Origin: a virus
Lineage: Duplodnaviria; Caudoviricetes
Length of the DNA stretch: 64,000 nt
Strand: one strand, 5' to 3'
Virus record (IMG/VR): IMGVR_UViG_3300021387_001464
Coordinates: 32,001-96,000 of that record
This document shows, piece by piece, positions 28,576 to 34,463 of the stretch. Positions within the stretch are counted from its first letter, which is position 1. The number at the start of each line of letters is the position of its first letter. Made by a program: the position numbers and the translations under genes. Under the pieces are notes generated by a model. It saw only the letters and a program-made list of their open reading frames with translations, had not been told where the DNA came from and did not search any database.

Positions 28576-28730
28576 ATGAGTTATGTCGATAAACCCATCA
28601 TCCTTGGCAGGTACAGCCCGAGTCAGAATGGCATAGTGGTAAGCCCACGCGGACCCGCACTCTGCCTTGCAGGGGGGGTAACGGACACGATACGGACAAG
28701 CCGAAAATACTGATAGAACATGAATTGTAA
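28576..28730 (+). pseudogene. TRD-like mini-gene A, frameshifted (OFF) at G7
   Basis: G7 28672-28678; G8 gives MSYVDKPIILGRYSPSQNGIVVSPRGPALCLAGGGNGHDTDKPKILIEHEL*. Confidence 0.75.
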
Positions 28731-28863
28731 AACAATGCTATTGAATCCACAGGGGGGGGTATGCCGCACCATCAAGTCACAGTATTACAAAAGCAGCGTG
28801 GCGAATTTCCTGCTGCAGACCACCAGAGGAGCAACGGCAGTATTGATAGAATATGAACTATAA
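28720..28863 (+). CDS. TRD-like mini-gene B, in frame (G8)
   Basis: MNCKTMLLNPQGGVCRTIKSQYYKSSVANFLLQTTRGATAVLIEYEL*; G8 28752-28759. Confidence 0.75.
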   Translation: MNCKTMLLNPQGGVCRTIKSQYYKSSVANFLLQTTRGATAVLIEYEL

Positions 28864-29078
28864 GCGCATACCGAAGCCAGCGAACCTGCGAGACCATACA
28901 CCGAGTATGGCCGAAGCATTGCCCTATATGATAGAGGCGTGCGGTTTGAGGGGGGGGGTGTTTGTTCGACTATCGCCACTTTGTGTACGACACCATCGAC
29001 GGATGCTACCCGTTCCCAGTGACCACAAGGATTCATGCCAGTAATCAGATTTGGCTATGCAAAGAAATAGAACTTTAA
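28853..29078 (+). pseudogene. TRD-like mini-gene C, OFF at G9
   Basis: G9 28950-28958; G8 gives ...LRGGCLFDYRHFVYDTIDGCYPFPVTTRIHASNQIWLCKEIEL*. Confidence 0.65.
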
Positions 29079-29092
29079 AACAAGATAAAAGA

Positions 29093-30598
29093 ATGATTGC
29101 AAAAGTTTATCCAGATGGGCATCCTGACTTGCAAGGCAAGAAGGACCCGACGCACCCAGTGCGCTATTTCGACATCCGTAAACTCACTCCACGCAAGTGC
29201 TATTCACTGATGGGCGTGCCGCCGCAGCAGATCGACACGCTGATGAAAACCGAAAAGAAACCATATATGGCATGGGTGGGCGTAGATGCCGAACTGGCTG
29301 TGTTCGGACTGGAGCCGAGTGCCACGCGCCGCGAGGTCGATGAAGCATATCGCGAGGCTATCGAGAGTCTAAGAAGACCCACCCCCGACCCCTCCCTGGG
29401 CGAGGGAGGGGAGTGTGAAGACCCCGACAGACCCACCCCCATGCACCTCCCTGCTGAGGGAGGGGAGTGTGAAGAGCCTGAAATGAGCGAAGAGGAGGTG
29501 GCCCTGATGCGTGAGAACTACGATATGAACTACCAGCGCATCATCGCTGCCAGCCAGGAGCAGCGTTACGGTGACGTGCAGATTATTGCCAACTCGTCGC
29601 ATTACAAGCTGGCGGGTAACTCCATCGTCTGCGACGTGCTGATGTATATCTACGAGGAACTGATGTACCCGACGGGCCGCCGACTGCCGCAGGAGCAGAC
29701 CGACCTGTTCGCCCAGCCGCAGTTCCGGCTGACCCGAAACTGGAAGAAAGAGCCGCTGAAGTTGGTAACACTTTGCAGCGGCTACGACTCGCAGGCAATC
29801 GCTATGGATATGCTGCAACAGCGCTATCCGGACTTCCGATGGGAACTGAAGGCATGGAGCGAGTTCGACCCCGAGAGCAGCCGGCCACTGGAAGAGCAGC
29901 CCGCCGTGGTGGCCCATAATCTGCTGTTCCCACAATACAAGGATTTGAACCGTGGCGACATGACCAAGGCCGACTGGAGCGACCTCGCCGATGCAGGTAT
30001 CGACCTGCTGACATATAGTACTCCGTGTCAGTCCATCTCACAGGCTGGCAAGCGAGAGGGTATCAAGAAAGGTAGTGGCACTCGCAGCGCCGTGCTGTGG
30101 AGCACCGAGATGGCGGTAGAGCATCTGCGACCGAAGGTGCTATTGCAGGAGAATGTGCGGGCGCTTATCAACAGCGTGAACATGCCCGACTTCCGCGAGT
30201 GGTGCAGCCTGCTGGAGAGCTACGGCTACGTGAACTTCCTCGCGCCATCGTTCCCGACGGTCTGGGGCACCGACAAGCGCGACAAGAAGACCGTGCCGGG
30301 CATCCTGAACGCCAAGCATTATGGTGTGCCACAGAACCGCGAGCGGGTGTATATGGTCTCCATTCGTGCCGACCTGCTCGGTGGCACGCAGTATGAGTTT
30401 CCCCGTCCTTTCCCGCTCGACAAGTGCATTGCCGATGTGCTGGAGGATAATGTCGATGAGCGTTTCTTCCTGAAGCCCGACTCGGTAATCAAGTTCCTCA
30501 CAGTGAATGAATCGACTGACAGTAACGATATACACTATACGGTAACGGACCACAAACTCTCCGATGAAGAAATCGCCAAGATTCGTAGTGGAAAGTAG
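29093..30598 (+). CDS. Circularly permuted DNA (cytosine-5) methyltransferase lacking a TRD
   Basis: Order IX (RKLTPRKCYSLMG), X (YKLAGNSIV), I (LCSGYDS), IV (TPCQ), VI (ENV), VIII (QNRERVY); the start could also be 29057. Confidence 0.92.
   Translation: MIAKVYPDGHPDLQGKKDPTHPVRYFDIRKLTPRKCYSLMGVPPQQIDTLMKTEKKPYMAWVGVDAELAVFGLEPSATRREVDEAYREAIESLRRPTPDPSLGEGGECEDPDRPTPMHLPAEGGECEEPEMSEEEVALMRENYDMNYQRIIAASQEQRYGDVQIIANSSHYKLAGNSIVCDVLMYIYEELMYPTGRRLPQEQTDLFAQPQFRLTRNWKKEPLKLVTLCSGYDSQAIAMDMLQQRYPDFRWELKAWSEFDPESSRPLEEQPAVVAHNLLFPQYKDLNRGDMTKADWSDLADAGIDLLTYSTPCQSISQAGKREGIKKGSGTRSAVLWSTEMAVEHLRPKVLLQENVRALINSVNMPDFREWCSLLESYGYVNFLAPSFPTVWGTDKRDKKTVPGILNAKHYGVPQNRERVYMVSIRADLLGGTQYEFPRPFPLDKCIADVLEDNVDERFFLKPDSVIKFLTVNESTDSNDIHYTVTDHKLSDEEIAKIRSGK
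29375..29475. repeat. Two REP-like palindromic units (54-bp period) in frame inside the methyltransferase
   Basis: CCCACCCCC..CCTCCCT.....AGGGAGGGGAGTGTGAAGA twice. Confidence 0.8.
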
Positions 30599-30784
30599 TG
30601 CTGTGCTGCGGGGCGTGCGGACAGAGCACGCCCGTGCAGTACGCCGTATCTACGGTGACAGGGGGGGTACTGCCACTTCTCGGACCGCAACTACCTGCCT
30701 GCTACCGATGGCTGCAGCAACACCATCACTGGCGTACAGAAGGACAACCTATTGATAGTTGAATATGAATATAAAGAGTGTTAA
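30564..30784 (+). pseudogene. TRD-like mini-gene D, OFF at G7
   Basis: G7 30661-30667; G8 gives ...DRGGYCHFSDRNYLPATDGCSNTITGVQKDNLLIVEYEYKEC*. Confidence 0.78.
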
Positions 30785-30908
30785 GCCCTACGACGATTAC
30801 AATTCTACCCCCCCCCGACGCGATGGTGTCATTGGCACCGTTACAAGGCAAATTGGAACATCAGCACCAAGGAACGGCTGGAAAATATTGATAGAGTATG
30901 AAATATAA
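30765..30908 (+). CDS. TRD-like mini-gene E, in frame (C9)
   Basis: MNIKSVKPYDDYNSTPPRRDGVIGTVTRQIGTSAPRNGWKILIEYEI*; C9 30808-30816. Confidence 0.75.
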   Translation: MNIKSVKPYDDYNSTPPRRDGVIGTVTRQIGTSAPRNGWKILIEYEI

Positions 30909-31062
30909 CAGGATATTGCAAATAGGCAACCTTACTGAAGGTGCAGGCAGAAACAACCCGCAGCGCAGAAGGCTCTACTCGCCCTATGGCATTGCACCAA
31001 CGGTGTACGGCTATCAAGGCGGTGGCAATTTGCAACCCTTGGTATTGATAGAGTATGAGTAG
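30898..31062 (+). CDS. TRD-like mini-gene F (no tract)
   Basis: MKYNRILQIGNLTEGAGRNNPQRRRLYSPYGIAPTVYGYQGGGNLQPLVLIEYE*. Confidence 0.8.
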   Translation: MKYNRILQIGNLTEGAGRNNPQRRRLYSPYGIAPTVYGYQGGGNLQPLVLIEYE

Positions 31063-31255
31063 CGTTACCCCCATATTGCGGCAAGTCCCTGTTCGGCGAG
31101 TGCGGACGGAATGGGCAAAGGCCATCCGACGAGAGACGGGCACCAACCCGTTTCAAGCCAAACAACTGGAGGAGTTTGTGTCGGACTACATGCCTACCAT
31201 CACCGCCAGTGCAAACATCGAGAACTACATAAAGGTAGAGTATGATATTGATTAA
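31055..31255 (+). CDS. TRD-like mini-gene G (no tract)
   Basis: RVRTEWAKAIRR...MPTITASANIENYIKVEYDID*; N-terminal part resembles D. Confidence 0.75.
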   Translation: MSSVTPILRQVPVRRVRTEWAKAIRRETGTNPFQAKQLEEFVSDYMPTITASANIENYIKVEYDID

Positions 31256-31424
31256 AGAAACGATGCCCAACGAAGACCGCTTCCCTGTCCGTATCTCAGC
31301 AAGTCGTGGCAGGGGGGGGCAAAGACCGTTCCATCAGGTCATTGAACTCGGATCGTCGCAAGCCACAAACACCATCACATCAGTACAAAAAGATAATCTG
31401 GTATGGATAGAGCGAGATATTTAG
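31242..31424 (+). CDS. TRD-like mini-gene H, in frame (G8)
   Basis: ASRGRGG...TNTITSVQKDNLVWIERDI*; G8 31312-31319. Confidence 0.8.
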   Translation: MILIKETMPNEDRFPVRISASRGRGGQRPFHQVIELGSSQATNTITSVQKDNLVWIERDI

Positions 31425-31556
31425 TTGGCGTACATCCGTTCTCTCACGCTTTGGAGTGTGAGGGCAAAATATGGGGGGGGGCAAATCAGTCCTGCCCTGC
31501 GGAGTACGGATTATAAATGTCCTCATTGTGTATTGATTGAGTATGAAGGAGTTTAA
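31403..31556 (+). pseudogene. TRD-like mini-gene I, OFF at G9
   Basis: G9 31473-31481; G8 gives ...KIWGGQISPALRSTDYKCPHCVLIEYEGV*. Confidence 0.78.
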
Positions 31557-31723
31557 GTTTATTGGATGGACACGGCTCGGCAGTGGAAAAGGTGACGTAT
31601 CAAAGTATCATCTGCGCCACTACTGTAACGCCATAACCTCGTTTGCAGGGGGGGGGTATTGGCAAGGATTCGCAGACTGGAATGTATAACACCACACCGT
31701 ATGTATTGATAGAATATGAGTAA
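31543..31723 (+). pseudogene. TRD-like mini-gene J, OFF at G9
   Basis: G9 31648-31656; G8 gives ...CNAITSFAGGGIGKDSQTGMYNTTPYVLIEYE*. Confidence 0.78.
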
Positions 31724-31911
31724 AGAAAAGAAAGTTCGCCGATGCGACAACATTGCAGGGAAGTGGATGCCCGATGGCTCTATCCGCTTCTACCAAATGA
31801 ACGAGCGGAAAGGCGGTGTGCCCGAACTTGTCAACGGCTACGCTGGGGGGGGTCATGCCCTGTATCATAGCAGGCCATGAGCATTATGTTATTGTAGATT
31901 ATGACCTATGA
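31716..31911 (+). pseudogene. TRD-like mini-gene K, OFF at G8
   Basis: G8 31845-31852; G7 gives ...YAGGVMPCIIAGHEHYVIVDYDL*. Confidence 0.7.
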
Positions 31912-32162
31912 GTAACGTCAAGCATTATCCAACCGACGGGCGACCGTTTCTCTCCACCGCTTTGAGGGGGGGGCAGTTCGTGCTGCAAGTTCGACAAGCC
32001 ACGGAGCAGGGCTACATCGAGTGTGTCAGCGGTGGCGTGTTCGATGTGGCTTATCCTTCCAGCCAGCTGCGCCGTGCCCGCGTCAAGGACGACGGCCTCG
32101 TGGCATCAGCGCTCATGTCGGGTGAAACATCACAATGCGTATTCATAGAATATGACGAATAA
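31908..32162 (+). CDS. TRD-like mini-gene L, in frame (G8)
   Basis: QATEQGYIEC..GGVFDVAYPSSQLRRARV...ASALM...VFIEYDE*; G8 31966-31973. Confidence 0.8.
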   Translation: MSNVKHYPTDGRPFLSTALRGGQFVLQVRQATEQGYIECVSGGVFDVAYPSSQLRRARVKDDGLVASALMSGETSQCVFIEYDE

Positions 32163-32292
32163 AAAATATTACGGAGGAATATACTGTTGCTCTTCGCAAT
32201 ATGTGAAGAAAAAGCCTCTATGGGGCGTAGCACGTTGCATTATGGCTGATAAGGCTGACTATCATTTATTAGTAGAGTATGAAGGCTATTAA
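32152..32292 (+). CDS. TRD-like mini-gene M (no tract)
   Basis: MTNKKYYGGIYCCSSQYVKKKPLWGVARCIMADKADYHLLVEYEGY*. Confidence 0.7.
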   Translation: MTNKKYYGGIYCCSSQYVKKKPLWGVARCIMADKADYHLLVEYEGY

Positions 32293-32573
32293 ACTATCGC
32301 GCACCACATCGGCTACGGCCAAGCATTTGAGGGGGGGGGGACTTCCTGCCGGTTCAAGGCTGCGATTCAGCGAGAGCAGTCGAAAGCTCGCTTTCAGACT
32401 GCCGAGCGCAAGCAGGCTCGACGGGTTACTTGTTACCTGTCAATACCACGACAGGCGGCTGCGCCTGTACGCTCAACACCCGCTACGACGGTATGCAACT
32501 GCCAGAGGATATCCTCTCGCTCGCACACTATCCAAAGACAGTCGTGCTTATCGAATATCATCCTGACGGGTAA
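32279..32573 (+). pseudogene. TRD-like mini-gene N, OFF at G10
   Basis: G10 32331-32340; G9 gives ...PVNTTTGGCACTLNTRYDGMQLPEDILSLAHYPKTVVLIEYHPDG*. Confidence 0.72.
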
Positions 32574-32682
32574 GGTTTCGTCCTCGCAAGATGGAGTGGT
32601 CGTATCGCCATACGGCATTGCACCCACCCATTCCGCAGGGCACGGTAACTGTCCAAAGATACTGATAGAGTATAATATATAA
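32557..32682 (+). CDS. TRD-like mini-gene O, lacking its own ATG
   Basis: IILTGKVSSSQDGVVVSPYGIAPTHSAGHGNCPKILIEYNI*; ATC at the position of the usual ATG; frame open back to the G10 tract. Confidence 0.65.
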   Translation: MILTGKVSSSQDGVVVSPYGIAPTHSAGHGNCPKILIEYNI

Positions 32683-33297: not shown

Positions 33298-33370
33298 GGG
33301 CTGAGGGCTGAGGGCTGATGGCTGATGTAGGGGTCGCCTCTTGCGAAGCGCCCCGAAACAAGAAAAGGAG

Positions 33371-33405
33371 TGTCCGCGTAGTTGCGGGCACTCTTTTTAA
33401 TTTTG
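33371..33405 (+). promoter_or_regulatory. Putative late promoter TGTCCG-N21-TAATTTTG
   Basis: Upstream of the first tail-module gene. Confidence 0.7.
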
Positions 33406-33428
33406 TACCCAACAAGACACGAATAGAT

Positions 33429-34463
33429 ATGTTTGGACAGAAATCGACACGACAAATCGACCTGCATCTGCCTACGGGCTGGAACCGCTGCACCACGGAG
33501 GAGCTGGAAGCCATCGCCGCCGCCATCATTCAGGAGCAGCAGCGAGTAGATAGATACCACCCCTTCGACTGGAGTAGGGTGAAGCTGAACGTCGCCCTTT
33601 CCATTAACGATATATCGACATATCGACATAACGATATATCGAAGGACGACGAAAGCACTTGGCTCGTAAAGCGCCCGCAGGACAAGGAGCCGTGGCCTAT
33701 CACCATGGGGCAGCTGGTGGCACTGACCGAGCGGCTGGCGTGGATAGACGACGAGAAGGCGGATAAGACGATCTTCCAGTTCCCGTATAATTCATTGAAC
33801 ATTGAACATGGAACATTGAACATTAAAGTTCAAGGTCCCCCGCCACTGCTCGACGGCTACACCTGGAACGAGTACCGCCTGCTGACCGACTGGATGCAGG
33901 CGTATATGCGGCATAGCAATGCCATAGTGAAAATGAAGAATGAAGAATTAAGAATGAAGAATCAGGAGGCGGCGGCGCAGGCACAGCGGGAGTTCCTGGC
34001 TATCCTGTTCAAACCCTGCGAAAAATCGCAGGGGACAGCAGCTGTGAATGATGGCGGCGGCAGCAAAAAAATGTTCAATGTTCAACGTTCAATGTTCAAT
34101 GTTCAATGTTCAATGTTCAATGCTCAATCTTCAATGTTCAATGTTCAATGTTCAATGTTCAATGATTTCGACCCCGTAAAATGGCAGGTCATCCTCTTCT
34201 GGTGGTCGTCGCTCATGTCGATGCTTGCGAAGAAGTTCCCCAAGGTATTCAAGCAGCAGCCCGTGGGCAAGGGCAAACGCCGCCCGCAGCAGCAGGACAC
34301 CCCGTGGGACTTTTACAACCGCGTGACCGCCACGATACAGAAATACATCGGCGGCCTCTCCGAGCAGGACGTGAACAACGCTACCTATGGCACCATCCTG
34401 CAACAGCTGGAGATGATGGCCGACGAGGCAGCGGAAATGGAAAAACTGAAAATGAAAAAGTAA
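33429..34463 (+). CDS. Hypothetical tail-module protein carrying in-frame heptamer repeats
   Basis: Start at ATG 33429; ~13 TTCAATG units at 34074-34164 translate to MFNVQCS repeats. Confidence 0.7.
   Translation: MFGQKSTRQIDLHLPTGWNRCTTEELEAIAAAIIQEQQRVDRYHPFDWSRVKLNVALSINDISTYRHNDISKDDESTWLVKRPQDKEPWPITMGQLVALTERLAWIDDEKADKTIFQFPYNSLNIEHGTLNIKVQGPPPLLDGYTWNEYRLLTDWMQAYMRHSNAIVKMKNEELRMKNQEAAAQAQREFLAILFKPCEKSQGTAAVNDGGGSKKMFNVQRSMFNVQCSMFNAQSSMFNVQCSMFNDFDPVKWQVILFWWSSLMSMLAKKFPKVFKQQPVGKGKRRPQQQDTPWDFYNRVTATIQKYIGGLSEQDVNNATYGTILQQLEMMADEAAEMEKLKMKK

Follow-up and report, generated by a model that had tools for sequence, protein, structure and literature searches.

The stretch of viral DNA analysed here, referred to below as the window, is 64,000 nucleotides long (bases 32001-96000 of a 111,678-base IMG/VR virus record), and the allele that it carries is called W. 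It encodes a C5 cytosine methylase at 29051-30598 (PF00145, E 4e-36) whose motifs follow the order IX-X-I-IV-VI-VIII, leaving the core chain open at the point where the target-recognition region is usually placed. This core methylase is flanked by short open reading frames (ORFs), three upstream and twelve downstream, and most members of the resulting array end in an (L/I)(I/V)EY(E/D) tail whose codons overlap the following ATG. At the usual array junction, TTG ATA GAR TAT GA, two stops in the frame of the following cassette are succeeded by its ATG. Homopolymers are concentrated in the same region, with 12 of the window's 13 runs of at least seven G or C falling within the 3.7-kb cassette array.

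Here we describe the final two cassettes of this array, N and O, which appear to share a single start codon and a single G tract. Searching deposited phage genomes at the DNA level with the array gave no match, and an Rfam scan of the array likewise matched nothing. A scan for promoters and terminators found no terminator within the array and nothing particular to N or O.

Three reading frames from one start codon

The features of the N-O unit are given below. Alleles are described as N-ON, O-ON or OFF according to whether the frame set by the tract leads to N, to O or to neither.

32279..32330, + strand: start codon and 17-codon leader (M-x-x-IKL..TTSA..K..), common to N and O and kept in all N-ON and O-ON alleles
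32331..32340, + strand: G10 homopolymer, the putative switch; relatives have G6 to G9 here, with matching frame states
32340..32573, + strand: body of candidate module N, in its G9 reading frame; core CTLNTRYDG...LAHYPKTV (alignment A2 of 11 natural N-ON alleles)
32341..32426, + strand: 84-nt insertion specific to W (alignment and blast; placement ambiguous by a few bases, given a flanking imperfect duplication)
32341..32556, + strand: linker, the N body in the O frame; its 72 codons include neither a stop nor a canonical start (frame translation, relatives)
32547..32573, + strand: remodelled N/O junction, CTT ATC GAA TAT CAT (comparison with the array junctions)
32557..32682, + strand: module O (..SQDG..GHGNCPKILIEY..), the last cassette, without a start codon or G tract of its own (purifying selection; homology to PF00145 modules)

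The leader at 32279 is coupled, via the junction motif, to the tail of cassette M just before it. G10 lies past the start codon, at codons 18-21 of the ORF, and is thus a coding homopolymer of at least seven bases. The stretch was rebuilt by script with 8, 9, 10 and 11 G's, and the products were translated from ATG 32279. In the present state, G10, the product is the listed 95-aa ORF (32279..32566), which ends at the OFF-frame stop 32564-32566 and has no module tail. With G9 a 97-aa product results, with the C-terminus VLIEYHPDG and a stop at 32571-32573, corresponding to N. With G8 or G11 the products are 133 and 134 aa long, respectively; their C-terminal part is module O, and the stop lies at 32680-32682. 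An earlier note on this DNA had derived these products and stops from the same ATG and G10 tract, and its account matches ours base for base; the more than 220 nt that it had given as open after the tract in all three frames come to 226, 233 and 342 nt. The three frames therefore lead to different downstream sequences, one of them entering the next coding sequence, as in repeat-mediated gene fusion, and the same is found in the relatives.

The junction between N and O departs from the usual array junction in that CTT ATC GAA TAT CAT stands in place of TTG ATA GAR TAT GA, with the consequence that both O-frame stops and the ATG are gone. As the earlier note had claimed, positions 32557-32559 read ATC where the other cassettes have their coupled ATG. 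In O, moreover, the Gly run has been exchanged for G-H-G, coded with synonymous variation, so that O is without a switch of its own.

Matches to O are found in PF00145 proteins of 259-616 aa, with E values of 4e-12 to 3e-5 and 64-84% identity. In three uncultured single-chain C5 methylases (P0003, P0005 and P0007) the O segment follows motif VIII and precedes motif IX, accompanied by other module types that are known as cassettes of this array too; these enzymes hold O-type, G-type and L-type modules in tandem on one polypeptide, which means that the same module families exist both fused and as free mini-genes. Judged by these matches, O is a genuine recognition module of C5 methylases. Since O has polypeptide N-terminal to it in the single-chain enzymes, an N-terminal extension should be tolerable. 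In the O-state products this extension includes an overprinted linker of 45-72 aa, which we count as a caveat to the reading favoured below. As the N body read in the +1 frame, the linker is rich in Arg, Ser, Thr, Pro, Ala and Gln.

The candidacy of N as a recognition module rests on its C-T-L-N-T-R motif, the common tail and its position in the array. Its body shows a pN of 0.06-0.15 against a pS of 0.5-0.9. A search for relatives of N among longer proteins found none, and the N and O profiles gave chance matches only, with E above 0.3, when compared with solved structures.

Across 30 codons of O in 21 alleles, pS averages 0.68 and pN 0.11; over all pairs the two means give a pN/pS ratio of 0.16. 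Within clades pS is 0.21-0.46 and pN 0-0.013, and between W and the relative L001 dN is 0.127, with dS saturated. By these measures O is under strong purifying selection; a reading of O as a dead relic was rejected on its pN/pS. The history of the module is illuminated by one locus (L063:740-1080), in which the leader of an N-type cassette has a C7 run, not G, and the O-type cassette after it still begins with an ATG (M-A-I-N-S-S-Q-D-G). The lack of a start in O is therefore a derived condition, its ATG having been lost historically, and the arrangement in L063 is probably ancestral. That O had simply lost its ATG was the alternative that the earlier note had itself put forward; as history the proposal is upheld by L063, but it leaves the later conservation of O unexplained.

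The insertion, present in W alone, sits in N just past the tract and is flanked by an imperfect duplication of ~17 nt; we count its presence in N as a further caveat to the reading favoured below. It has zero stops in all three frames, against one in the copy in L046. Its core is similar to an intergenic element that relatives carry next to their arrays, in either orientation (L046:526-612 on the plus strand; L050:1675-1762, L047 and L048 on the minus strand). The RNA fold of the insertion is not significant (z = -1.26).

A separate observation concerns a 7-nt tandem repeat, AATGTTC (13.6 copies; window 34070-34164 and 33793-33824), in a 381-aa ORF at 33318-34463, where it encodes a repeated M-F-N-V-Q-C-S peptide. 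The same heptamer repeat borders the intergenic element in L046.

Tract states in natural alleles

A search with the core enzyme yielded 13 related viral loci of the same architecture, and a search with the O alignment (A1) yielded 62 metagenome loci and 11 viral loci. Together these viral and metagenome contigs provide about 26 distinct alleles of the N-O unit, distributed over four deep lineages (the groups of W, L001 and L004, plus L066), and O directly follows N in every one of them.

About 13 of the alleles are N-ON, typically at G8. About 8 are O-ON, with G7 in L027/L028, L052, L025 and L044, and with L043, L056 and the database proteins P0002 and P0018 in the same state. About 5 are OFF: W at G10, L001, L003 and L026 at G9, and L048 at G6. 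The frame rule is alike in all alleles, with N at tract length n, O at n-1 or n+2, and OFF at n+1. W is N-ON at G9, and its relatives at G8, because in W the Tyr codon TAC after the tract became GAC, which made the run one G longer than theirs and left the frame unchanged.

As in contingency loci, tract length varies among close relatives (G6 to G10) and the reading frame shifts with it. L048 (G6, OFF) and L050 (G8, N-ON) are 98.1% identical over 2.5 kb, L001 (G9) and L036 (G8) are 97.5% identical in the N-O unit, and the W clade contains all three states within 0.06 substitutions per site. On a tract-masked tree of 23 tips the states are scattered and need at least 8 changes, compared with a mean of 9.1 when they are shuffled. 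The claim that tract length selects the N frame or the O frame thus finds its counterpart in nature, in N-ON, O-ON and OFF alleles that are sometimes carried by near-identical genomes, and we regard these natural states as the strongest evidence in favour of reading the tract as a switch. Two further proteins, P0021 (59 aa) and P0001, join the leader straight to O without the N body (read from the protein sequences alone), as we would expect if the leader's ATG were the working start of O.

All tract lengths were taken from consensus assemblies, and homopolymers are error-prone on some platforms; the differences in length could in principle be sequencing or assembly errors at a locus whose real tract is fixed. 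We judge this to be very improbable, as lengths from G6 to G10 recur in independent samples and the identical alleles L027 and L028, which come from two samples, both have G7. Errors would also sit poorly with the proportion of ON to OFF states (about 21 vs 5) and with the concentration of tracts in the array only.

A different objection concerns the level at which the choice is made. Homopolymers of 9-10 are known slippage sites, and slippage of RNA polymerase or of the ribosome on the G run could mix the frames, with each genome making some N and some O in a graded choice. A preprint on frame-dependent leaky expression from OFF repeat states in a Mycoplasma mod gene is in keeping with such mixing. 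No stimulatory structure adjoins the tract, however, the nearest predicted hairpin being ~30 nt away and not significant, and variation in length at the DNA level is directly seen among near-identical genomes, so that a DNA switch would exist regardless of slippage. As the principal account of the locus we therefore consider slippage improbable.

Two kinds of recoding were considered separately and rejected. A programmed ribosomal frameshift site at the tract is contradicted by the variation of the DNA tract itself and by the lack of both a significant structure after it and an Rfam match. A +1 ribosomal shift at the stop of N, giving an N-O fusion, would need a site (GGG TAA G in W) that the L001 and L004 groups have not conserved.

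The open frame and the start of O

An ATG at 32557 and stops in the third frame of homologs were the findings that the earlier note had set against its own reading, and the relatives have neither. The junctions of all N-O alleles, across the four deep lineages, lack an in-frame ATG for O and read TATCA, or a sequence equivalent to it, in place of TATGA. From the tract as far as O, the O frame contains no stop in 26 of 26 alleles. No canonical start in the O frame is common to all lineages, as ATG, GTG or TTG occur scattered and in a lineage-specific manner. Where an ATG overlaps the stop of N, as happens in the L001 and L004 groups, it is out of frame with O.

One such overlap is of interest in its own right. 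In L004:8560-8690 and most loci of the L004 group, the stop of N overlaps a third-frame ATG (CTATGA), from which an ORF of ~32 codons runs across O to its end junction. This ORF occurs mostly where another cassette follows O and may serve to relay stop-start coupling once N has terminated.

These observations bear on the possibility that O is translated independently of the tract, through non-AUG initiation or through re-initiation at Ile codons (ATC, ATT or ATA) after the N or OFF frame ends, so that the tract would switch N only and read-through from the leader via the linker into O would be a by-product. All lineages have an Ile codon where the coupled ATG usually stands, and stop-start coupling at the junction motif is used by the other cassettes of the array; in addition, an in-frame TTG is found 33 nt ahead of SQDG in the L001 group, and a GTG inside O in the W group. 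Yet the Ile codons are accounted for by the conserved I-I/I-V residues of this type of module, none of the canonical starts is conserved across lineages, and the ATG over the stop of N is out of frame. Independent translation of O would also leave unexplained both the open O frame in every allele and the leader-O proteins P0021 and P0001, and we consider it unlikely.

How much the open frame itself can tell depends on what would be expected of it by chance. With the N protein held fixed, the O frame is open over the N body of W in about 1% of synonymous re-codings drawn from phage codon usage, and the probability per lineage of an open O frame, given the N protein, is 0.010-0.021 under genome codon usage. 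When N's own codons are permuted, the frame is open in 15% of cases for W and with a probability of 0.05-0.15 per lineage. The lineages differ at 50-90% of synonymous sites (pS 0.5-0.9), near saturation, and are for this reason close to independent.

The open frame is nevertheless not specific evidence by itself, because off-frame stops are depleted throughout the array. Past the tracts of all tract-bearing cassettes of W (window 28672-32573), 10 off-frame stops are observed vs 26 expected by synonymous resampling, a depletion of ~2.5-fold, and when N is left out the figures are 10 observed and 21 expected. Most N-O alleles likewise have a third (OFF) frame that is open to the junction. A general constraint on the array may thus account for part of the openness of the O frame, with ribosomes kept, for example, on the message to the next junction; for those in the OFF state, arrival at the junction may be required if translational coupling to the downstream cassettes is to be maintained.

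Taken to its limit, this constraint would make the open third frame just an instance of the general scarcity of off-frame stops, and O-ON one of the two OFF settings of N, with O functional only in ancestors or relatives that have an ATG of their own. Besides the depletion across the array, the L063 cassette with its own ATG suits such an account, as do two loci, L002 and L020, in which N occurs without a fused O and the frame is still open. The N bodies of these two loci closely resemble the ones in the N-O alleles L049/L056 and L066, which suggests that the open frame was probably inherited; both look like recent derivatives of N-O alleles. The distant N homologs L006, L005 and L010 have 1, 5 and 2 stops, respectively, in the O frame. 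Against general depletion as the whole explanation stands the behaviour of O, which has been start-less in four lineages until synonymous saturation and yet shows a within-clade pN near zero, whereas decay would be expected of an untranslated module. Likewise, O has retained the G-H-G residues although its own tract is gone. We find it distinctly improbable that O-ON is no more than an OFF setting of N.

We propose instead that N and O are a two-module unit of a split cytosine-5 methylase system that depends on a single start codon and a single hypermutable G tract. Translation would begin at ATG 32279, coupled to the preceding cassette, and would read the 17 leader codons and then the tract as Gly-Gly(-Gly). 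Slipped-strand mispairing during phage DNA replication would alter the tract by one G at high frequency, as the known behaviour of such tracts and the variation seen here suggest. At tract length n (9 in W, 8 in relatives) N would be made; at n-1 or n+2 the N body would be read in the +1 frame as a linker, with no stop, on into O; and at n+1, the present G10, the product would be a peptide without a module. N and O would be mutually exclusive on any one genome, and a single step from G10 would suffice to reach either, the loss of one G leading to N and the gain of one to O. Both peptides would be produced in their respective states, each would pair with the core methylase (29093-30598), which lacks a recognition domain, and the two would differ in target specificity.

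On the comparisons presented here, we put the probability that one G tract selects N, O or neither at roughly two in three, leaving about one third for the alternatives combined. A fuller version of this reading is also probable, though we hold it a little less firmly: the G run would be a three-position selector of methylation specificity, in which the sequence of N is read as a spacer to a start-less and switch-less O, the third position makes nothing, and selection has kept the spacer frame open until synonymous sites saturated.

Relation to known systems

Phase variation is usually seen as binary, ON or OFF, and here a single repeat, in a virus, appears to choose between two specificity modules and an OFF state. 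If this is true, a slip of one base would re-target the methylase, and a phage population could pre-adapt to hosts with different restriction systems. The locus would also be a clear natural case of an overlapping frame kept open by selection purely as a conduit. For annotation it carries a caution, in that start-less mini-ORFs beside homopolymers may be live genes. A search of the literature found no report of a repeat by which a C5 methylase is given one or the other of two recognition modules, and the known systems that come closest each share only some of these features.

The multispecific C5 methylases of the Bacillus phages SPR, phi3T and rho11s contain several short recognition modules, each responsible for one specificity. 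In these enzymes, as in the single-chain P0003, P0005 and P0007, the modules are fused and all are expressed, whereas N and O are free-standing mini-genes that would be mutually exclusive. M.EcoHK31I and M.AquI are two-polypeptide C5 methylases, and in M.EcoHK31I the coding sequence of the small subunit lies within that of the large one, in another frame. The system proposed here is similar in assembling a C5 methylase from separate polypeptides; M.EcoHK31I and M.AquI differ in having no repeat tract and no alternative modules, and their small subunit contains motif IX rather than a recognition module.

Hypermutable polyG tracts are found in the receptor-binding genes of Campylobacter Fletchervirus phages (Sorensen 2021), and contingency loci have been described in phages T2/T4 (bioRxiv 10.1101/2025.10.21.683753). 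As would be the case in the N-O unit, homopolymers in these phages give rise to reversible frameshift heterogeneity, a form of bet-hedging. The Fletchervirus and T2/T4 loci are ON/OFF switches in tail or other genes, however, and none of them selects between two alternative products.

The nearest known class is C-terminal phase variation with fusion to a downstream gene, followed by the poly-G tract in hsdS of NgoAV. In this Type I system of Neisseria gonorrhoeae, a one-base change of the hsdS tract reportedly alters methylation specificity. The two loci would be alike in that a one-base change in a G tract affects specificity, beyond ON/OFF. In NgoAV the change truncates a two-domain S subunit; the N-O tract would pick between separate modules in overlapping frames, and for a C5 enzyme.

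C-terminal phase variation and repeat-mediated gene fusion have been described in Helicobacter canadensis (Snyder 2010) and for NGK_1211/1212 of Neisseria gonorrhoeae (PMC5320596). There, as here, a coding homopolymer shifts translation among three frames, two of which give different products while one fuses to the sequence downstream. Unlike these examples, the N-O tract is 5'-proximal, and both of its long frames end in what are predicted to be homologous functional modules. The start-less O would be reached through the overprinted body of N, and the third frame would be a true OFF state. The N-O unit also differs in residing in a phage, with methylation specificity as its predicted output.
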